The notes: generated by a model from the sequence alone, not told the origin. 64,000 nucleotides of DNA from an uncultured Candidatus Pelagibacter sp. (GCA_964415115.1 CAYPYB010000005.1:53827-117826); one strand, 5' to 3'; numbered from the stretch's first letter, positions 1,553 through 27,215 are shown. Program-made: numbers and translations.

Positions 1553-2755
1553 ATGTTTTCTTTAAAATCTTTAAAAACATCTTCTATCTTTTCTCTCCAT
1601 TTATTGAGTCTTGCATATTTTCCAACAAACCATGTATTTTCTACACAAGCCAGTATTAGTTATATCATCGGTGGCGGAACTGCAAATCCGCCTCGAATAA
1701 ACACATCAACAGCATTTCCCGATGCATTAGCCATTTCTTTGAAAAATGTCCAAGCTGTAGTGCAAGATTCAAAAGGCAACATTTATGTTGCAGACTCTGA
1801 ACGAACATCGATTTTAAAAGCAACATTGGGCTCTAATTCCCAAGCACAACCAACCTATACCATTTCCACCATAGCTTCAGGTGTCCCAGGCTGTTTTGTG
1901 TTAGCCATAGATTCTAAAGATAATTTATATACGGTCGATAACGTTCAACACCAAGTCATAAAAATTAATACAACAACAGGTCAAAATTCAGTTATCGCAG
2001 AAAACGCACCTTCATCTAATAGCGCAGGAAATGAAAATAATCCCCTTAATTTTGGAATTATCCGAGGCGTTGCTGTCGATTCAAATTTCAATGTATTTAT
2101 AACAGATACCGATCAAAATATGATCAAAAAAATTCCTACTAGCGATCAAGGAAATACATATCAGCCCATTATAACCATTGCAGGTGTGGCACCGTCAAAA
2201 TTGATCAGCACCAATAATCTCTGCGTACCAGCAGCACTTGCTGATAATGCTGGGTATGTAGATGGCTTGGCTACTCAAGCTAAATTTAATTCCCCAAGAG
2301 GCCTTGCTGTTGATAATGCAGGCAACCTATATGTAGCTGATATGCAAAATCACCTGATTAGAAAACTAACTAATCAAAATGGAACATATACTGTTTCAAC
2401 CCTTGCTGGCGCAATGTCTGCAAATGGGCAACCTAATCCAGGTTTCATGGGCGATAACGGACAAGCACGATCGGCCCAACTTAATGGACCAACAGGTGTT
2501 AGCGTATCAAAAGATGGCAACAAAATTTACTGGGTTGAGTTTCAAAACAACTTAATAAGAAGTCTAGACAGTCAAAGCAACATCATCACAACACTAGCTT
2601 CCAATTCGGCAACACCCAATGCCACCATGTCGTTGCAAAATGCCATGCTAGCAAACCCTGTTAGACTATCTATGTTTCACAAACCAGACGGATCACCACA
2701 AGGTCTTCTTATTGCAGATCGCAACAACAACTTGGTGAAAAAACTACTTTTCTAA
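1553..2755 (+). CDS. NHL-repeat beta-propeller protein, probably exported
   Basis: 400 aa with a signal-like N-terminus. Six recurring blades match the NHL signature: NIYVADSERTSILK, NLYTVDNVQHQVIKI, NVFITDTDQNMIKKI, NLYVADMQNHLIRKL, KIYWVEFQNNLIRSL, LLIADRNNNLVKKL. Confidence 0.8.
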   Translation: MFSLKSLKTSSIFSLHLLSLAYFPTNHVFSTQASISYIIGGGTANPPRINTSTAFPDALAISLKNVQAVVQDSKGNIYVADSERTSILKATLGSNSQAQPTYTISTIASGVPGCFVLAIDSKDNLYTVDNVQHQVIKINTTTGQNSVIAENAPSSNSAGNENNPLNFGIIRGVAVDSNFNVFITDTDQNMIKKIPTSDQGNTYQPIITIAGVAPSKLISTNNLCVPAALADNAGYVDGLATQAKFNSPRGLAVDNAGNLYVADMQNHLIRKLTNQNGTYTVSTLAGAMSANGQPNPGFMGDNGQARSAQLNGPTGVSVSKDGNKIYWVEFQNNLIRSLDSQSNIITTLASNSATPNATMSLQNAMLANPVRLSMFHKPDGSPQGLLIADRNNNLVKKLLF

Positions 2756-7505: not shown

Positions 7506-8426
7506 ATGAATAAGAAACATGCATATATTTTACTGACCCTTTGTTTGATTGTTATTTTTAAAAAAAATCTTAAAAAAGAATTTTATTGTTATCAAAATAA
7601 AGTTTATGACATCATACTCAGTAAAAATGACCCCTATTCAAACTACGCCAAAAATCTGAAACCAGCCATTCCAAGATCAGAATTTATCAAATCTATTGAT
7701 ATTACAAAAAAAACATTAGAAATTGGTCCGTTCACAAATCCAATTTTGAAAGGTAATAATGTCAATTATTTTGATATTTTTGATCAAGAAGGTCTAAGGC
7801 AAAAGATCATAACTGATCAATTTTATGGCATCAAAGAAAAATACGATTCAGAATCAATAAAAGTACCATACATTAAATACGTTGATCCCCATGGAGATAT
7901 GAGTAAAATTAAAGACCAATTTGATATTGTATTTTCTTCTCATAATATAGAACATCAAGTTAACCTCATTAAACATTTACAGCAAATCCAAAAATTGATT
8001 CACTCAAAAGGTAAAATTTTTCTGATTGTTCCTGATAAACGCTATTGTTTTGATCACTTTATTTCAACAACAAACCTCTCCGACATTATCGACAATTTTG
8101 AAAACAACCCCAAAAAACATGATTTAAAAACTATTTTAGCAAACCGTTGTGAAATTACACATAATAATAATTTCGAACATTGGCAATCAAAACATGGAGA
8201 ACATAAAAGCGAACAAATTGATAACTGCTATATCAGTGCATTAAAAGAGTATAAAAATTCAGGAGATAACTATATTGACAGTCATCGATGGAGATTTACA
8301 CCACAAAGCTTTTATAAAATTATCTCTCAATTGAACGAAATGAAATACATTCAATTAAAAATTGATACCATTCATGCTACTAAATTTGGAAGTTGTGAAT
8401 TTTATGTTGTTTTAAGTCTGCAATAA
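7506..8426 (+). CDS. putative membrane-anchored class I SAM-dependent methyltransferase
   Basis: It has an N-terminal TM helix (AYILLTLCLIVIF), a motif-I-like LEIGPFTNP, an acidic-loop FDIFD, a post-II FDIVFSSHNIEH, and KGKIFLIVPD. The assignment is by pattern only. Confidence 0.45.
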   Translation: MNKKHAYILLTLCLIVIFKKNLKKEFYCYQNKVYDIILSKNDPYSNYAKNLKPAIPRSEFIKSIDITKKTLEIGPFTNPILKGNNVNYFDIFDQEGLRQKIITDQFYGIKEKYDSESIKVPYIKYVDPHGDMSKIKDQFDIVFSSHNIEHQVNLIKHLQQIQKLIHSKGKIFLIVPDKRYCFDHFISTTNLSDIIDNFENNPKKHDLKTILANRCEITHNNNFEHWQSKHGEHKSEQIDNCYISALKEYKNSGDNYIDSHRWRFTPQSFYKIISQLNEMKYIQLKIDTIHATKFGSCEFYVVLSLQ

Positions 8427-11180: not shown

Positions 11181-12431
11181 ATGAAAATAGATATGAAATC
11201 ATTTTTGAAAATTGCTAGTTCAATTGCCATATTATACGGTATTTTTTCTTACAATTCAGTAAAAGCTAATGCTTTATCATGGGAACCAACAAAACAATTA
11301 TGGGAAGAAAGTGTTTTATTGGCATCTGAAGCACTGGAAAAATACAAAACAAATAACCCAGGACTATCTTACGATAAGATAATACAACAATCTAAAATAG
11401 ATGCTGTCCTTTGGTACAATACAATGTTCACAAACTTTATGAAACAAACAGAAGTTTCTGCAATTTTATCACAAACAGGAATATCACATGATAGAATACA
11501 AAAAAAATCAAAAAATCAGTCTTTAAAAGAAAACTTTTTAAAACGTTTATTTTTACTGAGCATAATGTCTAATTTTAAATATATTTCAAACCAAATTGCA
11601 GAAGGCGCGAAAATCAATAGCACTTCAGCGACATCTATAGAATGGCCTTATCCTGTGTCATTAATCTATTCTCATGGAACAAGGGTTCTGGTAAAAATTG
11701 GTGGAAATCAGAATACATCCGAAACAATTTTTAATTGGTTAACGACAGGAAATCAAAATACGGAACCCTCATTTACACATTTACGATCCATATCGAGTCA
11801 CGGTACTGCCAAAAAAGGTGATTGTTCTACTTTATCGAATGCATCGTGTGAAATTAAAGAATTAAAACAAACGAGTTTTTCAGGAGTGTTTAAAAGTGCA
11901 ACCGACTCGTTAAGATCCCAACATAGATATATAAATGTTGCATTAGGAGGATTAGGTTATCTTGATTATTTTAATAACATCATCTCTTACAATGGTCACC
12001 GCATAAAAAGAAATAAAAACAACCAGTATGTTTTAGATGAATCAACTCAACATGGACATGTTTATACCTATTTAGGACCAGCTTCATTGTTGATAGGCGT
12101 AGAATCTTCCGCTCCAGGAAAACACGATATGTTTGAAAAAAATCATGATTTTACAAGTGGATTTAAAGACTCCACGGAATTACCATCCCCAACAGGCGGT
12201 CCAAAGATGCAAAAACTTTTAGGAACAAATGCGCCCAGTCAATATAACGGGATGATGGTGTATTTAGAAGAACAAGACTTTGAATTGATAAAAGAAAAAA
12301 TTAGATTTATTTTAGAACAGCCTTCATATAAACAAGCTTTACTATTTCAAGAACTTTTACTAAAAAACATATCTCATGGCAAAAATATTATTAACTCCTT
12401 TATTCAAAAGAATTCACCCCCGGCACAGTAA
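11181..12431 (+). CDS. hypothetical exported protein
   Basis: 416 aa with a signal-like N-terminus ending VKANA. I recognise no family. A His/Gly-rich block lies at aa ~285-345 (QHGHVYTYLGPASLLIGVESSAPGKHDMFEKNHDFTSG). Confidence 0.6.
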   Translation: MKIDMKSFLKIASSIAILYGIFSYNSVKANALSWEPTKQLWEESVLLASEALEKYKTNNPGLSYDKIIQQSKIDAVLWYNTMFTNFMKQTEVSAILSQTGISHDRIQKKSKNQSLKENFLKRLFLLSIMSNFKYISNQIAEGAKINSTSATSIEWPYPVSLIYSHGTRVLVKIGGNQNTSETIFNWLTTGNQNTEPSFTHLRSISSHGTAKKGDCSTLSNASCEIKELKQTSFSGVFKSATDSLRSQHRYINVALGGLGYLDYFNNIISYNGHRIKRNKNNQYVLDESTQHGHVYTYLGPASLLIGVESSAPGKHDMFEKNHDFTSGFKDSTELPSPTGGPKMQKLLGTNAPSQYNGMMVYLEEQDFELIKEKIRFILEQPSYKQALLFQELLLKNISHGKNIINSFIQKNSPPAQ

Positions 12432-12482: not shown

Positions 12483-13523
12483 TTAAGCGTTTAAATTCAT
12501 CTTCTTTAACTGATTTAAAATATTTGTGTACTCATCACCTTGCACTTTTGCAAGCCTCATGATCAGCCAATCTTTTTTCGTTACATGTTGAACTGCAAAT
12601 TCAGAATTACCTTTTTCTAAGATGCGATGAACTAATTTAAAGACTTTTTCCTTTACAGTTGCCATTTGAATTTGTTTTGATAATCCTTTTAAAGATTTAT
12701 GTTTCTCCATTTTTGAAAGTTGATCATCTATTTGATTTAAAGATAATTGTTCTTTTAAATAGGCTGATGCACTTTTAGATTCAGATCTACATTTTGATTC
12801 AGTAATAAAAATTTCAGGGTCATCTGATTCGTCAATATAGATACCATCAAATCCGTGGTTATTTCCCATCTTTGCATCGTTTAGATAATACTGAAAGGAC
12901 AGCATCGATAATTCCGTAGCTAATTCTCCTAAAACACCTCTTTCATCGTTGTTAGCTTTTTGATTGTTAAAGATCGTTGAAAAATCTTTAGTGAATTTCT
13001 TCAGATACTTTTCATTTTGTTCATCCCTTAATAATTCAATTTTAAATTTTTGATAGGAACTATATGACTTACTGACTTGCTTCATAATTGATTTTGCAGT
13101 TTTTACACCAGAATCGTCTTTCCAAAACAGCAAATAATTCCCGACATAATGCCTATTTTTTTGAATTTTTTTAGGAAAAATAAGATCTCCCTCTTGTATA
13201 TTATCCGTATGGATACTTAATGCATGAGTATCGAAATTGATATTGGCAATGTTAATTTCAAAGTTTCTTTTTCTTTTTATAAAATCTAAGACAACATTAT
13301 TGCCTAATGCATAGTGAACTTCTGTATCATTTTCAAGTTGATAATACCGAATGCTTTGAAATCTATGATGCCCTGTATCATATTCCACAAAACGAATAAG
13401 ATCTTTATTTTCATTACGAACAACATCGATATCTACAAAAATAAGGCATAAAGCATTTATTTTTAAAAGAAAAAAACCAATGGCTATTTTATAAAAAATA
13501 TTAATCATAAAAATGTCTATCAA
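12483..13523 (-). CDS. hypothetical membrane-anchored protein with a PD-(D/E)xK nuclease-like motif set
   Basis: 346 aa with an N-terminal TM helix (IAIGFFLLKINALCLIF). The C-terminal half carries RGVLGELATEL ... HGFDGIYID ... EIFITESKC, i.e. helix-E, strand-D and strand-ExK in the order and spacing typical of restriction-endonuclease-fold proteins. Confidence 0.55.
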   Translation of the reverse strand: MIDIFMINIFYKIAIGFFLLKINALCLIFVDIDVVRNENKDLIRFVEYDTGHHRFQSIRYYQLENDTEVHYALGNNVVLDFIKRKRNFEINIANINFDTHALSIHTDNIQEGDLIFPKKIQKNRHYVGNYLLFWKDDSGVKTAKSIMKQVSKSYSSYQKFKIELLRDEQNEKYLKKFTKDFSTIFNNQKANNDERGVLGELATELSMLSFQYYLNDAKMGNNHGFDGIYIDESDDPEIFITESKCRSESKSASAYLKEQLSLNQIDDQLSKMEKHKSLKGLSKQIQMATVKEKVFKLVHRILEKGNSEFAVQHVTKKDWLIMRLAKVQGDEYTNILNQLKKMNLNA

Positions 13524-16667: not shown

Positions 16668-17372
16668 CTAATCGATATTAATGGAAATATTGCGATACAT
16701 AATTCCTTCATCATTTTTTTGAATAGTGATATTTATTTTTATATAATTTTTATGAATGTATGGCTCTGCCAACTGGGGCCATTCGGTTAAAACCAAATAA
16801 TCATCCGCATTAATATAGTCCATAAATTCGATGTCAAATAAATCATCTGTGGTTTTCAAACGATACAAATCTGCGTGGACGATTTTGGTCTGCTCACACT
16901 GATATTCTTGCATAATATTAAAGGTAGGGCTTTTAATTTCAGAAAGATAAACCTGAGTTAATTTTGAAATCAGCAACTTAGACAATGCTGTCTTTCCAGC
17001 ACCCAAATCACCAACCAACCCTATATTAAAACCTTTATTAGAGTGTGTTTTTAACCATAAAGCTAAGCCTTCAGACCAAAAGTTCAGCTCTTCAAGATTA
17101 TGAATTGCAAATTGCCTACCTTGCCATGCATCTAACAAAAGAAAACTAAACCTCTTAAATGGGTTTGGAAATTCTTGATCATGAATAAACCACTGCATTA
17201 AAGCTTCTTCTGAATGATTGAGCAGGTCCAGAAATAACTGCCAATCATCTGTACTCCAATATTTTACCGCATTATCTTTATAGCTATCTAGAAAACGCTT
17301 GAAAATAAAATCGAGTTCTCTTGTTCCCCGGTATTGCGCTTTATACAAAGCTTCCTTGATCAAAGATTCCAT
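16668..17372 (-). CDS. tsaE: fusion protein: SdhE/SDHAF2-like flavinylation factor (N-terminal) plus tRNA t6A ATPase TsaE (C-terminal)
   Basis: The N-terminal ~85 aa (YKAQYRGTRELDFIFKRFLD ... DDWQLFLDLLNHSEEALMQW) match SdhE. The C-terminus (GLVGDLGAGKTALSKLL, SPTFNIMQEY, HADLYRL, LTEWP) matches TsaE. The tracked start at 17405 overlaps surA. The ATG at 17372 (MESLIKE) removes that overlap. Confidence 0.8.
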   Translation of the reverse strand: MESLIKEALYKAQYRGTRELDFIFKRFLDSYKDNAVKYWSTDDWQLFLDLLNHSEEALMQWFIHDQEFPNPFKRFSFLLLDAWQGRQFAIHNLEELNFWSEGLALWLKTHSNKGFNIGLVGDLGAGKTALSKLLISKLTQVYLSEIKSPTFNIMQEYQCEQTKIVHADLYRLKTTDDLFDIEFMDYINADDYLVLTEWPQLAEPYIHKNYIKINITIQKNDEGIMYRNISINID

Positions 17373-17382
17373 AAACACACAT

Positions 17383-18657
17383 TTAGCGTTGCATTCTGTA
17401 TTCAATTTTCGCTCTTGCTTTAACCTTATTGAATTCGATTATAGCAAGGTCCTGAATCTTCTTTTCCATCAATGCTTGCTTAATCATTTTCTTAGTAGGA
17501 ACCACGTCTTTACCTGCTTTTGTTTCAGAACATTTCATCAAAAAAAGCAATTCATTTTCTGAAATTTTCAAAGGTTTATCAATACGTCCTACTTTCATTT
17601 GATACACAATTTTTTGAAGTACATCGGGGAGTTCACCATATGCTTTGTTGTCCACTTTAGAAACTTCCAGCCCGTGTTTTTCACCACTTTTCGCAAAAGA
17701 ATCGCATGTGACTGAAGAAGATGTTTCATTCATATAATTCTGAAGCGTTTCTGGAACTTCGGAAACATTAGTATCTTGAAATATATATTTTGCCATAACA
17801 TAGCTAACTTTTGCTTCTTTTTCAGAAAGTTCTCCTGATTTTTTGCGATCTAAGCATTGGAAAATTACCCAACGATTTCCTATTTGTATAGGCTGGGTAA
17901 ACTCCCCTACTTTTAAATTCTTCGCCTGTTCTGGAGCAAGATGAATATCCATCCACCCAATAACACCACCTTGAGCACTAGAAGGAACTTGTGAAAAATT
18001 TCGAGCAACAACTACGAAAGGTACACCTTGCTGTAAATTCTTATGAGCTTCCTTAATTTTGCTTTCGGTGTGCCCCAAGCTGTCTTTTGTGTTTGTAAAA
18101 TAAACAATTTCACCCATTAAAATTTGATCTTTTTTACTCAAAGCCTCAAGTCTAGCCTTTTCCTTTTCCACATCTGTCTGTGTAACTTGAATAGTTGAAC
18201 CAAACACTGCACGAACTGTTTTCATCCATAATATGTTAACTTTTATACGTTCAGCAAGTGTTGAAACAGGAACACCCTTTTCAGAAAAAAACTTCTTCAT
18301 TTGATCCAAATTCATATTATTTTCTGATGCTAAATGAGCCAAAGATTCATTAATTTCTTCCATAGAAACACTAATATCTGCTTTTTCGGCCAACTGTTTT
18401 TGCAATTTTTCCTGAACAAGAGCCTCTAAAACCTGTGATTTTAATTCTGCTGTTATAGGATCGTCTACTCTACCTGATGAGAGAAGAATGAGCTTAGCTC
18501 TTTTATAAATATCACCGTAAGTTACAACATCCTGATTCACAACAACAGCGATCTGTGCTTCAGAGGCATTGTTAATAACTCCACCAGAAGGCGTTACAGC
18601 CATTACAGCCAACGAACTAAAACAATACCATGCTAAAATTAAATTTCTCTTCATCAT
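17383..18657 (-). CDS. surA: periplasmic chaperone / parvulin-type PPIase SurA
   Basis: Signal peptide, a SurA N-domain (AVVVNQDVVTYGDIYKRAKL) and one parvulin domain (FVVVARNFSQVPSSAQGGVIGWM ... GNRWVIFQ). Confidence 0.85.
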   Translation of the reverse strand: MMKRNLILAWYCFSSLAVMAVTPSGGVINNASEAQIAVVVNQDVVTYGDIYKRAKLILLSSGRVDDPITAELKSQVLEALVQEKLQKQLAEKADISVSMEEINESLAHLASENNMNLDQMKKFFSEKGVPVSTLAERIKVNILWMKTVRAVFGSTIQVTQTDVEKEKARLEALSKKDQILMGEIVYFTNTKDSLGHTESKIKEAHKNLQQGVPFVVVARNFSQVPSSAQGGVIGWMDIHLAPEQAKNLKVGEFTQPIQIGNRWVIFQCLDRKKSGELSEKEAKVSYVMAKYIFQDTNVSEVPETLQNYMNETSSSVTCDSFAKSGEKHGLEVSKVDNKAYGELPDVLQKIVYQMKVGRIDKPLKISENELLFLMKCSETKAGKDVVPTKKMIKQALMEKKIQDLAIIEFNKVKARAKIEYRMQR

Positions 18658-19903: not shown

Positions 19904-21001
19904 GTGGGCCCTATTTTTTTTGGAAAACTCTATTTTTCTTTACTTAAAAGTCTTTCTAAAACTGTGCTTTTCAGTTTTTTCTTCTTATCGGGATTATTTT
20001 TCATCTTTGAACTACTCGAAAAAATGCGTAATTTTCTTGCCCGTTCGGATGTTAGCTACGCTTTTATTGTCAAATTATCATTAATGGCCCTACCACAACA
20101 TATCTTATCCTTAAGCCCTTTTATTTTCTTTTGTTCAGCATGTTGTGCTATGTGGAAACTGAGTGAAAGAAATGAAATTATTATATGGAAAAATATTGGT
20201 GTATCAGGATTGCGCGCAACATTCATGATCATGACTATTTATTTATTGCTGGGATCTTGCTGGGTCATGATCATTAATCCTATATCTGCTTTTTCAAACC
20301 AACTATCTAACCAGATGTATGATAAATTTATACGAAAAGAAGAAACACCACTTACTCAAACACCTACTGGTTTTTGGATTAAAGAGGTTATTAACAATAA
20401 TTATCGCATCATCAGATCGACCAAAGTCAACATACGGTCTAAAACATTTGAAAATGTCTCTATTTGCGATTTTACAAATACTCATAAACTTTCTAAAATG
20501 ATTCTTGCTAAAGAAGCAACAATCGATAAAAATGTATGGTATGTCAAAGGTATTCAACATGTTTTTGGATTTGAATTCACCCCATCAACAACATTACCTA
20601 CGAACTTAACCATTCATAAAATTAAAATAACATCAAAGCCTCCTAAACATATACCCTTTTGGCAAATCAGATCGATCATCAAAGAACAAAAAAAGAACGG
20701 ATTATCCTATCTAGCTTATGACCTTCATTTTTATAATTTTTTTGCAGAAATACTGAACATTATTTTTTTAAGTGTTTTTGCTATCGGCATTTTTTGGAAT
20801 AAAGAAAGAAACCCAAATTATTACATTCATACTTTTAAAATAGTTTCTATCGGATTTTCCTTTTTCTTTTTGTGCAAAATACTTCATGCTTATGGTGAAT
20901 CACAAAATATTTCTGTCTATACAGCTTGTTTTCTACCTACTCTTTTAACGGCTTGTTTGTCTTTAGCTTATGTTCTGCATAAGGAGGAATTTACATCATG
21001 A
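19904..21001 (+). CDS. lptG: LPS export ABC permease LptG
   Basis: Second YjgP/YjgQ paralogue immediately downstream of lptF. It has a GTG start, and its stop overlaps the lptD ATG as ATGA. Confidence 0.85.
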   Translation: MGPIFFGKLYFSLLKSLSKTVLFSFFFLSGLFFIFELLEKMRNFLARSDVSYAFIVKLSLMALPQHILSLSPFIFFCSACCAMWKLSERNEIIIWKNIGVSGLRATFMIMTIYLLLGSCWVMIINPISAFSNQLSNQMYDKFIRKEETPLTQTPTGFWIKEVINNNYRIIRSTKVNIRSKTFENVSICDFTNTHKLSKMILAKEATIDKNVWYVKGIQHVFGFEFTPSTTLPTNLTIHKIKITSKPPKHIPFWQIRSIIKEQKKNGLSYLAYDLHFYNFFAEILNIIFLSVFAIGIFWNKERNPNYYIHTFKIVSIGFSFFFLCKILHAYGESQNISVYTACFLPTLLTACLSLAYVLHKEEFTS

Positions 21002-23259
21002 AAAAAAACATGTCTTATCTGTATTTTTTTTTATTAGCATCCACTAGTGTTATACCTACCTATTCTCGAAGTGAAACCTATGAAATCCAAATACAGTCTC
21101 AAAATTTTTCGCTAGATAACAACAAACATTCCATATCTGCTCAAGGAAAAGTTGAAACCATTATAACTAAGGATAATCAAAAGAAGATTAAAATATATTG
21201 TGACAAACTAGAACACAACATGTCATCTAGGGCTTTTTCTCTGAAAGGTTCCTCTCTCTATCCTCTTTCCATTCTTACCGATAAGGGTGAAGTGCTACAA
21301 TCTGAGGAGGCAGAAATTTCTTGGGATTTAAAAGATATTCAACTTGAACCGTTTGAAATTAAATTTGGCGAAAATTATACATTTAACGGCAAAAGTGCTG
21401 TAAGAAAAAATGCCAAAGTTAGCATTATGAAAGACTCTCATTATACAACATGTAAAACGTGTAAAAACCAAGATCCATTTTGGTCCATTAACGCCAAAGA
21501 AATTCAAAGAGATGAAGAAGAAGAAACCGTAAGTTACAAAAATATTTTCTTAAAAATTAAAAGCACACCCGTCTTATATTTACCCTATTTTTCCCACCCT
21601 GACCCTAGAGTCAAAAGAAAATCAGGTTTTATTAAACCCATTTTATCCAAAAGCAATGATTTAGGATATGTTTTGGGAACGCCTATATTTTATATTTTTG
21701 ACTCAACCCAAGACATGACTGTTACACCTGTTTTTATGAGTGCCCAAGGAGGCCTTTTTAAAAGCGAATACAGAAAAATGCTAAAAGAAGGTTTGTTTTC
21801 TGTTGATGGATCTATCACTCGAACGCAAAAAACTGTGCAGCAGATTTCTGCTGATGAAACGCCGTTAAGGTCTTTGGAACGTTGGTATATACATTCCAAT
21901 GCAGATTTTGCAATAAACGATGAACAAAGTATAGCTTTTGATCTTGCAAAAGCCAGTGACACAACATTTCTTGCCAGATATGCAACGCCTTTAGAAAGAC
22001 CCCTTTTGATTACCAACAGAACCATACCATCTTATGCTCGGTGGAATTATGATGCAAAATCGTATTATGTGTTTATCGACGCGCATAGTTTCCAAACAGA
22101 CCAACCTGATACGGCACCTCTCGTTTTGCCACGTTTAGAATTGGAATATTTTCATCATAACGATTTTGGATTATTTAGAATCCAAGCTAATTACACACAT
22201 ATTCAAAGGCATTCTTTTTTAACTTATTCAAACTCCCTATACCCTAAAAGAAATCAAAGATTCTTAATGAATACGGAATGGGAAAATATGTTTATCTCTT
22301 CATCCGGATTTGTATTTGAACCTAAATTAGTCATTTCTCAAAGTTTTTATTTTATTAAAACAAGCAATGGGTCTGTTGCACATTCTGAATCGGTTCAAAA
22401 AACATTTTCTCGTTTATTTCCCCAAGGTTCATTAAAAACATCTCTGCCGTTACAAAGTAAATTTGAAAATTCTTCTTATATTTTTGCACCCATGTCCTTT
22501 CTTATTATAGCGCCGGAATTAAGCCCAAAATACAGAACAATCCCAAATGAAGACAGTCAATTTTCAGATCTTGACGATATTTCTATTTTATCAACGAATC
22601 GTCTAGGGGGGTATGATCAAATTGACCAAGGTTCCAAGCTTGTTTTAGGCATAGATAACACACTCGATTTTGATTCTGGTAGAAAATTTGAATTTTTCAT
22701 AGGTCGATCCTTTAGGTTAGATAGGCAAGAGGTGCTGGGGGCCGTAAAAGGAGAAGCAGACCGTAAATCAGATTATCTTTTGCGTTTTTTAGTCAATTAT
22801 AATGAGCATCTAAGCTTTAGATCAAGATATGCATATAGTCCAGTTTTAAAAAGTTTCAGATACATGGAACATGGCATGATATTTGATCAAGAAAAAATCG
22901 CTGTAGAATGTGCACATATTCATCTAAATAAAAATATGATGAATACACAAAAAAATTTATCACAGCTTCATACCAATATTAAATTAAAAATCACACCTGA
23001 ATGGATGCTATTAGGTGGTCAGCTTCGTAATTTAAATAAATCCAACGGATCACCAACACTTGCTACCTACGGTGCGGCTCGTTATGAAAACGAATGTTTT
23101 TCTATGGAATTGGGTGTTTCTCGTTCAGCGCAAAAAGCGCGTGATCTGCGACCTGATACATCTTTCATTTTATCTTTAAATTTCAAAAGTATTTCAAATT
23201 TTAACTTTAGTCAATCATCAGCACTTCCCAATCACCCCTTTGTAAACTTTTTGAAGTAA
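20998..23259 (+). CDS. lptD: LPS-assembly outer-membrane protein LptD
   Basis: 753 aa with a signal peptide, an OstA-like N-domain and a large beta-barrel region (PVLYLPYFSHPDPRVKRKSGFIKP). Confidence 0.88.
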   Translation: MKKNMSYLYFFLLASTSVIPTYSRSETYEIQIQSQNFSLDNNKHSISAQGKVETIITKDNQKKIKIYCDKLEHNMSSRAFSLKGSSLYPLSILTDKGEVLQSEEAEISWDLKDIQLEPFEIKFGENYTFNGKSAVRKNAKVSIMKDSHYTTCKTCKNQDPFWSINAKEIQRDEEEETVSYKNIFLKIKSTPVLYLPYFSHPDPRVKRKSGFIKPILSKSNDLGYVLGTPIFYIFDSTQDMTVTPVFMSAQGGLFKSEYRKMLKEGLFSVDGSITRTQKTVQQISADETPLRSLERWYIHSNADFAINDEQSIAFDLAKASDTTFLARYATPLERPLLITNRTIPSYARWNYDAKSYYVFIDAHSFQTDQPDTAPLVLPRLELEYFHHNDFGLFRIQANYTHIQRHSFLTYSNSLYPKRNQRFLMNTEWENMFISSSGFVFEPKLVISQSFYFIKTSNGSVAHSESVQKTFSRLFPQGSLKTSLPLQSKFENSSYIFAPMSFLIIAPELSPKYRTIPNEDSQFSDLDDISILSTNRLGGYDQIDQGSKLVLGIDNTLDFDSGRKFEFFIGRSFRLDRQEVLGAVKGEADRKSDYLLRFLVNYNEHLSFRSRYAYSPVLKSFRYMEHGMIFDQEKIAVECAHIHLNKNMMNTQKNLSQLHTNIKLKITPEWMLLGGQLRNLNKSNGSPTLATYGAARYENECFSMELGVSRSAQKARDLRPDTSFILSLNFKSISNFNFSQSSALPNHPFVNFLK

Positions 23260-23364
23260 GAAGAAGTTCCAAACCGTTAAATCCTATGATCATTGAAAGC
23301 AAATAGCCCAAAACATACTTTCTTGAATTTTATATATATTTATGTCAATCTTGTAGATATCCGT

Positions 23365-23441
23365 GCATCCGTAGCTCAGCTGGATAGAGTGTTGCCCTCC
23401 GAAGGCAAAGGTCGGACGTTCGAATCGTCTCGGATGCGCCA
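23365..23441 (+). tRNA. tRNA-Arg (anticodon CCG), CCA encoded
   Basis: GCATCCG-TA-GCTC-AGCTGGATA-GAGT-G-TTGCC-CTCCGAA-GGCAA-AGGTC-GGACG-TTCGAAT-CGTCT-CGGATGC-G-CCA forms a complete 77-nt cloverleaf. Confidence 0.93.
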
Positions 23442-23470
23442 TTTATTATTTTTAGAAATTAATATTTATA

Positions 23471-23603
23471 ACTTGATTGCTTATAAAATAATTTCTCGCA
23501 ATTGCGTTTCATGGGTAGAAGTAAAACCTGTTGCCGTTAAAGCCGCAGATGGTCTTGAAATACACTTTATTTTTATGCCTTCAGTATTTTTAAATAGGTT
23601 GGC
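23471..23603 (-). pseudogene. orphan fragment duplicating the 3' end (last ~40 codons) of sucA
   Basis: It aligns with 24462-24596. By hand I count 12 mismatches in 108 nt plus a 2-nt indel. The fragment conceptually reads RANLFKNTEGIKIKCISRPSAALTATGFTSTHETQLRE, against sucA WPNLFKNIEGIKIKCISRPYAASTATGFSSIHETELQE. Confidence 0.8.
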
Positions 23604-23657
23604 ACGTGTAGATATATAATCATTTATACTTTCATACTTAGAAATACTTTTTCAAGA

Positions 23658-24398
23658 CTACTTATCTTTTTTGTGAAAGCGTAAAAGTTGATCTACTGTT
23701 ACAAATTTATAACCCATCTTTTTCACTGCTGGAATAAATAAATCTAGGGATTTTACAGTATTATTTTTGTCTGCATTGGCATCGTGCATCAAAATAATTG
23801 AACCTGGTCGTAGTTCACTCATAATAGTTTTTACGATATCTTTTACAGAGGGAACTTTGTGATCTCTAGGATCAATATCGCACAAAATATTAAATTTTTT
23901 AATTCTTTTGAGCACCCAAGGTAAGTGAATGGGAATCTTAAGATAAGGCGAGCGAAAATGTATAGGATCTAAGTATCCAAAATTTCTGATTATTTGGTCT
24001 GTCTTTTCAATTTCAGATATTATTTCACTGGGCCATAAGTATTTTAGTTTAGGATGCGTCCATGTGTGATTTCCAATTTCGTGACCTTCTTCATAGGTTC
24101 TTTTAAAAATATGAGGCAATTTTTCAACATTTCTTCCAAGTACAAAAAATGTTGCTTTTATATCATGTTTTTTAAGTAAATCTAGAATTCGTTCAGTATA
24201 TTCTTTTGAAGGTCCGTCATCAAATGTAAGAGCAACCATTTTTTCTGTAGTATTTATTTTTTCAAAATACAAATCTAGTGCTGGGTCAAAATAACTAAAA
24301 TACATCCACTTTATTAAGTAATAAAAACACAATGAAAAAATAAAAAATGAGAAAAATTTTTTATTCTTGCTGCTTCTTAAATTAGCCCATAGAGACAT
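23658..24398 (-). CDS. polysaccharide deacetylase (NodB / CE4 family), membrane-anchored
   Basis: N-terminal TM helix, NodB motif 1 (LTFDDGP), motif 2 (HTWTHP) and later RSPY and LMHD blocks. Confidence 0.85.
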   Translation of the reverse strand: MSLWANLRSSKNKKFFSFFIFSLCFYYLIKWMYFSYFDPALDLYFEKINTTEKMVALTFDDGPSKEYTERILDLLKKHDIKATFFVLGRNVEKLPHIFKRTYEEGHEIGNHTWTHPKLKYLWPSEIISEIEKTDQIIRNFGYLDPIHFRSPYLKIPIHLPWVLKRIKKFNILCDIDPRDHKVPSVKDIVKTIMSELRPGSIILMHDANADKNNTVKSLDLFIPAVKKMGYKFVTVDQLLRFHKKDK

Positions 24399-24467
24399 TT
24401 TAACATTGACCGCATAATATTTTTAATATTTTAACAATAGAAATGTTAATTTATAGCTAAAACATGA

Positions 24468-27215
24468 TTAAAAAGATTTTAATAATATTTCTTGCAATTC
24501 CGTTTCATGGATAGAACTAAAACCTGTGGCCGTTGAAGCTGCGTAAGGTCTTGAAATACACTTTATTTTTATGCCTTCAATATTTTTAAAAAGGTTAGGC
24601 CAAATACTCATATAAAAATGTGTCCAGGCACCAGCATTTTGTGGTTCTTCTTGGCACCAAATCAAATCAGAATAAGGGTGTATCTTTTTGCATAATTGAT
24701 GAATTTGGTCGGAATTAATAGGGTACAATTGTTCAAAACGGATTAAAATAATTTTATCATTCAAATTTTGTTCTTCTATAGCTTGCGCCAAATCGTAATA
24801 AATTTTTCCTGAACATAAAATATATTTTGCAACACTTTTTTCTCTGCCTTTATAATCGATCAAAATTTGTTGAAAGTTTTCGTGCTGATCTACTGAAAAT
24901 TCAGATATGTGCGATACAGCTTTTTTATGACGCAATAATGATTTTGGTGTGAATATAACCAATGGTCGCTTCTCTGGTTTGATCACATGATCCATCAACG
25001 CTCTATACAAACTTACAGGTGTCGTACAATTCACAACTTGAATATTATCTTGAGCACATAATTGTAAAAAACGTTCAATTCGTGCCGAAGAATGTTCTGG
25101 GCCTTGACCTTCAAATCCATGGGGTAGCATTAAAACAAGATTACTATTTTGATTCCATTTTGATCGCCCAGATGCAATAAATTGATCAATCATCACTTGA
25201 GCACCATTTGCAAAATCTCCAAATTGTGCTTCCCAAATATTTAAATCATGGGAATGAACTAAAGAATAACCATATTCAAAACCCAAAACCGCCAATTCAG
25301 ATAAATAGCTATCCCAAATATTAAAAGAACCTCTGTCGCCAAAATATTTCGGGTTAAACAATCGATAAGGCTGATTTTTTTCTTGGTCATACCAAACAGC
25401 GTGACGATGCGAAAAAGTGCCACGCACCGAATCTTGACCACTGATACGTACAGATCTTCCCATCAGTAATGTGGTTGCATATGCAACCCATTCGCCGCAA
25501 CCCCAATCTAAATTAATTTTGCCTTCTAGCATTTGCAGACGATTTTCTAACAAACGTTTGAGTTTAGAATTCAGATTTAATGTTAAGCCCTTTCGTATGG
25601 CATTTTTTAAAGCTTCAATAGCTTTCAATACAACGTTTTCTTCAGGCAAATTATTTTTAACATTTATTTCTTCTAAGGAATGGATAGTCGAACTCTTATT
25701 GGAGAGACTCTCCTTTACATCCAAAAGTAAAGATTCATAGTGATTTTTTACATCTTTAACTCTTTGTAACGCATTATCACGAATTTGACTGTTGTAAGAA
25801 GTTTGAATTTCTAGAATTTTTAAATATTCTTCAAAAGCTGGCTTTAAATGTGAAATAGTCTTGTACATGGAGGGTTGTGTAAAAACTGGTTCATCTCCTT
25901 CATTATGACCATATTTACGGTACCCTATTAAATCAACGATAATATCTTTTTTAAATTGTTTTTTGTATTCAAATGCAAGCTTTGAAGCTTTAATAACAGC
26001 ATCAATATCGAGCGCATTAACATGAATAACAGGAATGTTAAAAGCCTTAGCAATATCGGTGCAATAATACGTTGAACGACTATCTTGTGGATCGGCAGTA
26101 AAACCTATTTGATTATTAGATATGATATGAATCGTACCATCTGTTTTATACCCTTCTAAGTTCATAGCTTGCAAGGATTCATATACTATTCCCTGTCCTG
26201 CTATCGATGCATCACCGTGCACCAAGACCCCCATAATATTTTCTTTATCAACACTTTCTGCTAAATCCTTAAGACCACGTACATAGCCTAAAACTACAGG
26301 GTTTATAAACTCTAGATGAGATGGATTTGGCAGTAATTTTAAAGTTAAAGACTTTTGGTCTTTTTCTCGAATAGATTCTTGTCCTAAATGATATTTCACA
26401 TCCCCTGAATAGTAAGAAGTATCACCTTTTTCATATTCTCCTAAAAACAGTTTTAAAACATCTTGTACAGGAAGATCTAAACATTGAGTCAAAACGCTTA
26501 ATCTACCCCGATGAGTCATACCCAAAATAATATGAGATTGTGAATATTGTTGGATAGATTGATCAAAAATCACTTCAAGAAAAACAGCCAGTGCTTCGCA
26601 CCCTTCTATGCTAAAACGTTTTGCACCAGGAAATTTTGTATGAAGAAAATTTTCAAATACGTGTATATCCACCAATTTATGAAGTGCTTTTTCTTGTTCT
26701 GAAACTGTGCAGGTTTCATTTTTTTCAACAAACAAGAATAACCAATTTTTTTCATTCTCTGAATCGATATGATCAAATTCATAACCTACTGTTCCGCAAT
26801 ATAGTGGATATAAATCATGATTTTTGAATGATTCTAATTTTGAGTTTTTGGAATCTTCTAAAACAGAACTTTCAACTGATTTATTCAAAGGATTCAGATT
26901 AGCACCTAAATGTCCAAATCTACGCAAATAATCAAGCGATTGAAAATTATTCAAATCACTATAAGGTATACAAAGCTTTTTAGCTAAACTTTGTTTTTGT
27001 CTTGGTAAAAATAGTGGCAATTGTTCATTAGTGAACAAGGCTTCTTTCAACTCTGAAAATTTTTCAATGAATTGATTTTTATTTTCCTTCTGATATTCAT
27101 CCACATCTGAAGTATCACATAACATTTGTGTCAGATATTGAAAGTTTTCGCTTACCAATGCATTGTCTGCATTGTGTCTTGCAGATTTTTTTGGACTTAA
27201 ATCAGAAGAATCCAT
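24468..27215 (-). CDS. sucA: 2-oxoglutarate dehydrogenase E1 component
   Basis: 915 aa with GMTHRGRLSVL, HGDASIAGQGIVYES, a ThDP-binding region, and EAQFGDFANGAQ and LLPHGFEGQGPEHSSARIERFLQ. Confidence 0.95.
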   Translation of the reverse strand: MDSSDLSPKKSARHNADNALVSENFQYLTQMLCDTSDVDEYQKENKNQFIEKFSELKEALFTNEQLPLFLPRQKQSLAKKLCIPYSDLNNFQSLDYLRRFGHLGANLNPLNKSVESSVLEDSKNSKLESFKNHDLYPLYCGTVGYEFDHIDSENEKNWLFLFVEKNETCTVSEQEKALHKLVDIHVFENFLHTKFPGAKRFSIEGCEALAVFLEVIFDQSIQQYSQSHIILGMTHRGRLSVLTQCLDLPVQDVLKLFLGEYEKGDTSYYSGDVKYHLGQESIREKDQKSLTLKLLPNPSHLEFINPVVLGYVRGLKDLAESVDKENIMGVLVHGDASIAGQGIVYESLQAMNLEGYKTDGTIHIISNNQIGFTADPQDSRSTYYCTDIAKAFNIPVIHVNALDIDAVIKASKLAFEYKKQFKKDIIVDLIGYRKYGHNEGDEPVFTQPSMYKTISHLKPAFEEYLKILEIQTSYNSQIRDNALQRVKDVKNHYESLLLDVKESLSNKSSTIHSLEEINVKNNLPEENVVLKAIEALKNAIRKGLTLNLNSKLKRLLENRLQMLEGKINLDWGCGEWVAYATTLLMGRSVRISGQDSVRGTFSHRHAVWYDQEKNQPYRLFNPKYFGDRGSFNIWDSYLSELAVLGFEYGYSLVHSHDLNIWEAQFGDFANGAQVMIDQFIASGRSKWNQNSNLVLMLPHGFEGQGPEHSSARIERFLQLCAQDNIQVVNCTTPVSLYRALMDHVIKPEKRPLVIFTPKSLLRHKKAVSHISEFSVDQHENFQQILIDYKGREKSVAKYILCSGKIYYDLAQAIEEQNLNDKIILIRFEQLYPINSDQIHQLCKKIHPYSDLIWCQEEPQNAGAWTHFYMSIWPNLFKNIEGIKIKCISRPYAASTATGFSSIHETELQEILLKSF

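Follow-up and report, generated by a model that had tools for sequence, protein, structure and literature searches.

A deacetylase gene inserted at the 3' end of sucA in an uncultured Candidatus Pelagibacter sp. and the displaced native gene end that records the event

In the genome of an uncultured Candidatus Pelagibacter sp. (GCA_964415115.1), the sucA gene is followed by a lone deacetylase gene and then by a second, diverged copy of its own 3' end, which raises the question of how a single gene came to lie at the end of this operon with sucA left intact. The locus was analysed in a window of 64,000 nucleotides (nt) (CAYPYB010000005.1:53827-117826), which is the whole stretch of DNA considered here and to which all coordinates refer unless another source is named. 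From left to right on the + strand, the order is lptD, tRNA-Arg(CCG), an orphan sucA-like stretch, an open reading frame (ORF) of 246 amino acids (aa), sucA, sucD, sucC and mdh. The sucA gene (24468-27215, - strand) encodes an intact 2-oxoglutarate dehydrogenase E1 of 915 aa with the Pfam domains E1_dh, Transket_pyr and OxoGdeHyase_C, and is the last gene of the mdh-sucC-sucD-sucA cluster. The 246-aa ORF (23658-24398, - strand) encodes a CE4 (NodB-homology) polysaccharide/peptidoglycan deacetylase (PF01522, 128 bits) and is the only cargo gene. In the lineage of the window, an insertion of approximately 1 kb took place in the last codons of sucA; the ancestral gene ended about 25-50 nt from the convergent tRNA-Arg(CCG).

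The two copies of the sucA 3' end lie on one gapless diagonal at an offset of 996 nt (23491-23600 and 24487-24596), with 98 of the 110 positions identical (12 mismatches, 89%). The working copy (Y', 24487-24596, - strand) comprises the in-use sucA codons N873-E908, whereas the orphan body (Y'', 23491-23600, - strand) is the equivalent of the same codons outside the gene. A repeat search of the window returned the same family as 139 nt at 82% identity. Comparison of the spacer between the tRNA and the deacetylase gene (23442-23657) with the rest of the window by blastn aligned 23457-23600 to 24448-24596 (149 nt, 82%, one gap, E = 5.6e-38), whereas all other matches had E values of at least 0.13; the similarity is therefore far above chance for AT-rich DNA, although homology outside the 110-nt core is not statistically secure by itself. 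The diverged repeat had been proposed in a first-pass annotation of this DNA with the same 12 mismatches and about 89% identity, and the formal alignment excludes chance similarity. The same annotation had placed a 2-nt indel near the stop codon, where the copies in fact differ by an indel of 5 nt and by further ones.

The orphan copy is open in the sucA frame and carries exactly the seven replacements that had been counted earlier (I>T, Y>S, S>L, S>T, I>T, E>Q and Q>R) over the 36 shared codons. Read on the - strand, the orphan gives NLFKNTEGIKIKCISRPSAALTATGFTSTHETQLRE and the working copy gives NLFKNIEGIKIKCISRPYAASTATGFSSIHETELQE. The orphan has no start codon, reaches a stop three codons past the shared block and is not translatable alone. 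The core repeats enclose 886 nt in which the PF01522 deacetylase is the sole ORF, in agreement with the earlier description. An ORF on the + strand (23293-23619) overlaps the tRNA and is antisense to the orphan, and was correctly set aside as an artefact. The deacetylase gene and the orphan (23658-23613, - strand) share one reading frame, in which they are separated by a TAG, a TGA one codon later and a short spacer; with a chance of 1 in 3, this sharing is probably a coincidence.

The same arrangement has been assembled in a Logan contig of 1023 nt (L002, from SRR12762304). This contig is 100% identical to the window over the working repeat, the deacetylase gene and the orphan repeat, and the copy-specific variants are present on each side; both of its ends fall inside the longest identical block of the repeat. 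L002 is a separate Logan assembly, for which a sequencing run shared with the assembly of the window is possible. It reproduces both junctions, so the repeat structure is not an assembly artefact. Exact database look-ups did not find the deacetylase or sucA of the window recorded as called genes.

The ancestral state of the locus is evident from relatives. The species-representative collection contains a single close genome, L001 (PNMQ01000002.1), whose SucA shows 85% aa identity. The public labels of L001 conflict, the record naming 'Candidatus Pelagibacter sp.' and the NCBI protein name (P0242) naming 'Candidatus Puniceispirillum sp.'. L001 and the window are collinear over 22.7 kb at approximately 85% nt identity, and a block of 996 nt (23601-24596, - strand), composed of a repeat copy, a replacement tail, the deacetylase gene and a spacer, is the sole large indel. 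A single region of L001 (12629-12738) matches both repeat copies of the window. In L001, 25 nt separate the sucA stop codon from the convergent tRNA-Arg(CCG), beyond which lies lptD, and there is no deacetylase gene between sucA and the tRNA. A search with full-length SucA yielded two further relatives, L087 and L088 (64% identity), whereas the remaining matches did not exceed 46% and were mostly from Rickettsiales or Holosporaceae. In L088 the sucA stop codon is followed by 47 nt and tRNA-Arg(CCG), again with no deacetylase gene between. Since L001 and L088 both have the empty site, the 996-nt block is an insertion in the window lineage and the ancestral state is sucA facing tRNA-Arg; its polarity and its empty site are thus matters of observation. 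On its right, the ancestral sucA 3' end has tRNA-Arg(CCG) as a fixed neighbour.

In L087 (10749-13840), tRNA-Arg and lptD do not follow sucA; their place is taken by a gene for a 374-aa protein without a family, an AFG1-like ATPase gene and another ORF. The window contains no homologue of any of these genes, and no orphan sucA fragment was found after sucA in L087. Within the clade, synteny breaks at the sucA 3' junction. No deacetylase homologue was found within the L001, L087 and L088 loci, and sucB follows sucA in none of the window, L001, L087 and L088. The comparison with relatives suggested by the first-pass annotation thus finds the deacetylase gene absent, tRNA-Arg facing sucA in L001 and L088, and no sucB after sucA. 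A metagenome scan with sucA was swamped by the universal WCQEEPQN motif, the best match was 55%, and no close relative was found.

The native end of sucA can be told from the replacement by a three-way alignment, in which the orphan, together with the DNA that follows it, keeps collinearity with L001 as far as the tRNA. The native sucA tail and the native DNA between sucA and the tRNA (T'', 23442-23490, - strand) differ from L001 by approximately five mismatches and one 1-nt indel over the whole 49-50 nt (counted by eye), with a local score of 36.5 against 11.6 ± 1.8 in shuffles, which no shuffle reached. The orphan tail reads EII-L-stop-AIKL-stop and that of L001 reads EIISQAIKL-stop, 'AIKL-stop' being common to both. 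The premature stop of the orphan (23481-23483) is a Gln codon in L001, and the ancestral stop (23466-23468) is situated 24 nt from the tRNA end. The working copy tracks L001 only as far as …CAAGAAAT, after which several indels follow and the reading ends in EILLKSF-stop. Only the orphan side is collinear with L001 to the tRNA; therefore, the tRNA-proximal copy is the original terminus and the working sucA carries a replacement terminus.

The replacement tail region (T', 24399-24486, - strand) contains the last five full sucA codons (LLKSF, 24471-24485), the new stop (24468-24470) and, up to the deacetylase ATG, a spacer of 69 nt; base 24486 completes the Ile codon that precedes LLKSF. It is sharply diverged from L001 and the orphan tail, with a shuffle p of 0.08-0.09, and it showed no significant homology to the native, L001, L087 or L088 tails against shuffles (p 0.055-0.26). 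It starts with ILLK, as in the outgroups L087 and L088 (EILLKAM…), whereas the native tail reads II(S/L)(Q/stop)AIKL. The deacetylase stop and the orphan fragment are separated by a 57-nt spacer (23601-23657, - strand), within which the insert joins the orphan arm; this spacer is insert-specific and is matched neither elsewhere in the window nor in L001, L087 or L088. With its replacement terminus, SucA still matches the complete C-terminal Pfam domain OxoGdeHyase_C (residues 768-915, profile positions 2-151 of 151), and the working repeat lies inside this match.

The repeat itself is a mosaic. Within the 110-nt block, 11 sites are specific to the orphan, one is specific to the working copy (a second lies at position 111) and six are specific to L001; the working copy differs from L001 at 7 of 110 positions. 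Informative sites were defined as those at which L001 agrees with one window copy only. Up to repeat position 104, L001 agrees with the working copy and with the orphan in a ratio of 11:1, whereas beyond it the ratio is 1:14 (Fisher p = 1e-5), these being small numbers drawn from four segments under different constraint. The switch occurs after column 188 of alignment A2, and the inferred crossover interval, AGAAAT, corresponds to repeat positions 105-110 (23491-23496 on the orphan side and 24487-24492 in the working copy, - strand) and is identical in both. Four of the 11 orphan-specific bases are equal to those of both L087 and L088 (p = 0.006-0.013 under simulated random decay), and five are equal to at least one of them (p about 0.02). 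The orphan is not AT-biased, with a GC content of 0.355 against 0.336 in the working copy and 33% in the genome. The two copies are 89% identical to each other and about 63% identical to L087 and L088. As far as sequence comparison can tell, the mosaic fits a single reciprocal exchange in which the native sucA end recombined with a diverged, incoming homologue of that end, and the changes in the orphan appear unlike plain decay.

Two further sequence features are found at the exchange point. The orphan-specific substitutions at repeat positions 97 (G>C) and 104 (A>G) turn CGGAATTGCA into a perfect 10-bp palindrome, CGCAATTGCG, at 23497-23506, which directly adjoins the inferred crossover interval; the palindrome could be due to chance or could be a putative protein-binding site. 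An AU-rich inverted repeat, AGAAATTA(N27)TAATTTCT, is present at 23454-23496 in the window and at 12733-12775 in L001; it spans the native sucA stop, and its 5' arm is the crossover interval. Its fold surpasses that of shuffles in the orphan copy (z = -2.8), whereas no such excess was seen in the working copy or in L001, L087 and L088.

The best explanation, which is considered moderately probable, is a Campbell-type integration in which circular incoming DNA underwent a single reciprocal crossover with the sucA 3' end; the circular form and the single crossover are what we infer. The incoming DNA would have carried a diverged sucA 3' end, made up of approximately 110 nt of coding sequence and a tail, and, 69 nt further on, one CE4 deacetylase gene. 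Acting as a circle, it would have recombined once and reciprocally with the chromosomal sucA 3' end, within AGAAAT, the 6 nt that close the shared block on its 3' side. The attL-like product would be the native sucA body joined to the incoming tail (…ELQEILLKSF-stop), by which sucA would stay functional; the middle product would be the deacetylase gene, oriented as sucA; and the attR-like product would be the incoming sucA-like arm joined to the native tail and intergenic DNA, abutting tRNA-Arg. The attR-like product would be untranslated and decaying, as suggested by its premature stop and its replacements at conserved residues. The donor was presumably a relative within the same poorly sampled clade, because the arm is 89% identical to the host copy as opposed to about 63% to the next lineages and because the composition of the cargo is host-like. 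The exchange could have been catalyzed by host RecA on the homology of approximately 110 nt, or by a recombinase acting in trans or since lost.

Several observations weigh against this reconstruction. No integrase or transposase was found in the insert or in any ORF of at least 150 aa in the 64 kb, and neither terminal inverted repeats at the ends of the insert nor an attC-like fold in the spacer were detected. No donor and no free or circular form was found: the closest deacetylase is 51% identical, viral contigs scanned with the deacetylase and with the 32-nt repeat core gave no match to either, and L002 shows the integrated form only. Unequal constraint could in part have produced the mosaic, since the working repeat is coding, the native tail may be constrained by the tRNA and the two other segments are free to drift. 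The sucA 3' end is also unusually conserved even synonymously; window 24487-24670 and L001 12560-12738 (the last ~60 sucA codons) have the lowest synonymous divergence in the gene (pS 0.14 against 0.41 gene-wide), which suggests either extra constraint at the nucleotide level or a past recombination tract. The outgroup test rests on four to five sites. The longest identical block (33 nt) is located elsewhere in the repeat, away from the inferred exchange interval, and a classical integrase exchanges at the upstream edge of the duplicated gene end, whereas the exchange here is at the downstream edge.

The first-pass annotation had read the locus as the footprint of site-specific integration into a gene's 3' end or, as a second option, of a duplication-mediated rearrangement. 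Insertion at the sucA 3' end, the direct repeats and the reconstituted terminus are borne out by the empty sites and by the native and replacement tails. Site-specificity is unsupported because RecA-type homologous recombination explains the topology equally well, and there is neither an integrase nor a second tRNA 3' fragment. The statement that no integrase remains holds in that none is present or adjacent, but the word 'remains' presumes an earlier one. The second option fares less well, as the mosaic favours a reciprocal crossover over a plain local duplication.

A rival reading is an in-situ duplication, in which foreign DNA with the deacetylase gene was inserted approximately seven codons before the sucA stop by illegitimate recombination or repair (e.g., template switching or fill-in of a long staggered break), duplicating 110-160 nt of the host's sucA 3' end; the working copy would then have stayed under selection and the orphan would have decayed neutrally. 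Such an origin is rather unlikely. It accounts for two copies that are far more alike than either is to L087 and L088 and that have no indels over 110 nt. The replacements at otherwise invariant residues and the premature stop in the orphan also agree with it, the 11:1 excess of orphan-specific changes fits relaxed constraint, and neither a recombinase nor a donor has been found. Moreover, the AU-rich inverted repeat starts exactly at the breakpoint and could promote breakage or template switching. However, matches to both outgroups at four of the 11 changed sites are rare under random decay (p about 0.01), and the changes are not AT-biased although the genome has 33% GC. The working tail is far more diverged from the native tail, with several indels, than the orphan body is from its partner, with none, so the tail and the body cannot be equally old neutral copies. 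To our knowledge, no repair route routinely yields target duplications of more than 100 nt.

It is doubtful that the insert is the remnant of a larger integrase-bearing island or prophage that integrated site-specifically into the sucA 3' end and was whittled down to one useful gene. The topology is the same as that of e14 and phage 21 in icd, the exchange is confined to a discrete short interval, and the orphan-specific changes create the palindrome CGCAATTGCG beside that interval. L087 has other genes at the sucA 3' junction, and the site may be reused. Yet the cargo is flanked by only 57 nt and 69 nt of non-coding DNA with no gene remnants, no integrase fragment was found among the ORFs scanned in the 64 kb, and deletion would have to have removed everything except a single gene and the two junctions. 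This origin is in any case a sub-case of the Campbell-type explanation rather than an exclusive alternative to it. At a similarly low level of probability, the 996-nt unit can be regarded as a minimal recombinase-free mobile cassette, consisting of one cargo gene and an approximately 110-nt mimic of a conserved gene terminus, that would move between related genomes. Such a cassette may loop out and re-enter through homology (by RecA or a recombinase in trans), always repairing its target with its own tail, and the sucA/tRNA-Arg junction, at which L087 has different genes, may be a dedicated landing pad in the clade.

An ancient insertion, which the window and L001 would have inherited from their common ancestor and which L001 would later have lost by recombination between the repeats, is quite improbable. 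Deletion between direct repeats is easy, and excision chimeras of e14 and its loss from icd have been documented (PMC6379469, PMC13626634). An ancient insertion would also explain the outgroup bases in the orphan and the derived bases common to the working copy and L001, and the tail of L001 is of the orphan (native) type. In contrast, the window and L001 are separated by a synonymous divergence of 0.5-1.0 per site (nine genes), at which a neutral older orphan is expected to carry approximately 30 or more changes in 110 nt, not the 11 seen, so insertion after the split of the window and L001 is much likelier than ancient insertion and loss. The reading frame of the native-type tail in L001 has stayed intact, the site is empty in the more distant L088 too, and a second exchange at the same 6-nt interval would be needed. 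Finally, an assembly artefact or chance AT-rich similarity is hardly credible: the assembly is metagenome-derived and repeats can mislead assemblers, but the 12 differing positions mean that the copies are not collapsed or duplicated reads, the match is far removed from the next best (E = 5.6e-38 against 0.13), and the separate Logan assembly has both junctions with their copy-specific variants.

The cargo is, judged from its sequence, an intact CE4 enzyme with a predicted membrane anchor, its N-terminal segment being hydrophobic. Residues 48-157 match Polysacc_deac_1 (PF01522) with 128 bits against a cut-off of 23.1, and residues 51-240 align with solved CE4 enzymes (143 bits to 7y51 and 136 bits to 5o6y). 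The closest solved relatives are peptidoglycan N-acetylglucosamine (GlcNAc) and N-acetylmuramic acid (MurNAc) deacetylases and chitin deacetylases. The CE4 motifs TFDDG, HxxxH, RxPY and LxH are present in the translation as LTFDDGP, HTWTH, FRSPY and ILMHD, respectively, and the first three are aligned with those of 7y51. The cargo is like the CE4 enzymes PgdA, PdaB/PdaC and NodB in having the full NodB-homology domain with its motifs. It is unlike them in that the DxxDW motif reads DPRDH, with His for Trp, and in that it scores below all NCBIfam equivalog cut-offs (PdaB 163 against 237, PgdA1 154 against 400, NodB 130 against 240). The enzyme could alter the cell wall or a surface polysaccharide, a putative role. 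Its use for host evasion by an intracellular bacterium, which the first-pass annotation had considered plausible, is conjectural in respect of both role and lifestyle.

The best deacetylase homologues outside the own genome show 45-51% identity, which does not imply an exotic origin, since the gap of sucA itself outside the clade is as large (at most 46%). The nearest homologues (P0003, P0007 and P0008) occupy ordinary chromosomal sites in other bacteria (after ileS, or near rpmE); in these contexts, none adjoins sucA and none lies in a mobile element. The composition of the cargo is host-like (GC z = -1.5, GC at third codon positions (GC3) z = -0.9, synonymous-codon fit rank 46/50), so that the codon usage check proposed in the first-pass annotation does not mark the gene as foreign. 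The deacetylase gene follows sucA after 69 nt and is read in the same direction, and promoter and terminator scans of 23000-25000 gave nothing above shuffles. Given this spacing, this orientation and the lack of promoter or terminator signals, co-transcription with the tricarboxylic acid (TCA) cluster is the simplest expectation, and the gene is probably co-transcribed with mdh-sucCDA.

On the other side of the orphan, the tRNA-Arg(CCG) gene (23365-23441, + strand; ARAGORN; Rfam RF00005, 62.9 bits) is convergent with sucA and is followed outward by lptD (20998-23259, + strand). Rfam identified no RNA family besides this tRNA at the locus. A match to the Rfam family HPnc0260 at 23403-23537 (- strand), overlapping the tRNA and the orphan, is below threshold (40 bits against a gathering score of 59, E = 0.019) and was taken as chance. 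The window as a whole encodes shikimate, diaminopimelate, haem, TCA cycle and complex I genes. An ORF of 416 aa (11181-12431, + strand), located between clpB and an unannotated ORF, has an Ntox11 ('novel toxin 11') domain and may encode a putative polymorphic-toxin-type protein. The ORF at 16668-17405 (- strand) combines an Sdh5/SDHAF2-like flavinator domain (residues 19-82) with TsaE (residues 116-230), and represents a fusion or else two separate genes that the mechanical ORF calling joined. A 400-aa NHL-repeat/beta-propeller protein is encoded at 1553-2755 (+ strand). Five ORFs of 300-570 aa (422-1345, 7506-8426, 12483-13523, 49778-51490 and 63067-63975) had no Pfam family at E <= 1e-5, and the first three also had no NCBIfam match at E <= 0.001.

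The locus provides a clean, datable case in which a small-genome, poorly sampled alphaproteobacterial lineage gained one gene with an essential operon left undisturbed. The incoming DNA brings a substitute gene end and the leftover native end records the event, so that the polarity can be read directly from the sequence and the exchange point mapped to within 6 nt. Should footprints of this kind be found repeatedly at conserved gene ends, they would reveal gene flow between relatives that escapes composition-based detection of horizontal gene transfer; at this locus, the cargo cannot be told from the host by composition.

Among known systems, tRNA-targeted islands share with this locus an insert that adjoins a tRNA gene and is absent in relatives. 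Here, in contrast, the repeat is sucA sequence rather than a tRNA 3' end, and the tRNA merely neighbours the true target. The last 24 nt of tRNA-Arg occur only once in the window, even with three mismatches allowed, and the tRNA-att model was rejected for want of a second tRNA-Arg 3' fragment in the window. Integron cassettes are comparable in consisting of one promoter-poor ORF of approximately 0.9 kb, here oriented as the upstream operon; they differ in that IntI and attI are absent from this locus and in that cassette insertion does not duplicate 110 nt of its target. A cassette was also rejected on the fold of the 57-nt spacer, which is no better than that of shuffles (z = +1.2). A transposon or insertion sequence was rejected as well, there being no transposase and no terminal inverted repeats, and the duplication being at least 110 nt rather than short.

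A closer likeness is found in the Campbell-type insertion of suicide plasmids, in which two direct copies flank the insert, each a chimera of native and incoming sequence that switches at the crossover. Host RecA and homology of approximately 100 nt or more suffice for integration of this type. Unlike the suicide-plasmid case, the event described here is natural and involves no replicon or marker, and its arm was about 10% diverged, a level that normally lowers RecA-mediated exchange.

The nearest counterpart is e14/phage 21 of Escherichia coli, whose integration into the icd 3' end was reportedly described by Hill, Gray and Brody in 1989. In the case of e14, the 3' end of icd is duplicated over 163 bp, the terminus in use is supplied by the element, and the pseudogene icdC lies at the far end (PMC6379469, PMC13626634). 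The element of E. coli differs from the insert in sucA in its size of approximately 15 kb, its own integrase and excisionase and its SOS-inducible excision, whereas the insert comprises 886 nt with one gene and no recombinase. The exchange in sucA is at the downstream edge, with only the last five to six codons contributed by the insert, and its arm appears to come from the sucA of a close relative, not from a phage. In other respects the two are alike. Both sit in the 3' end of an essential gene of the TCA cycle and bring a terminus of their own that leaves this gene functional, the displaced native terminus survives as a pseudogene fragment at the far end, and slightly diverged direct repeats (163 bp in icd and 110-150 bp here) allow precise loss. 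This kind of gene acquisition is thus already known, and the deacetylase gene in sucA is a small-scale real example of it.

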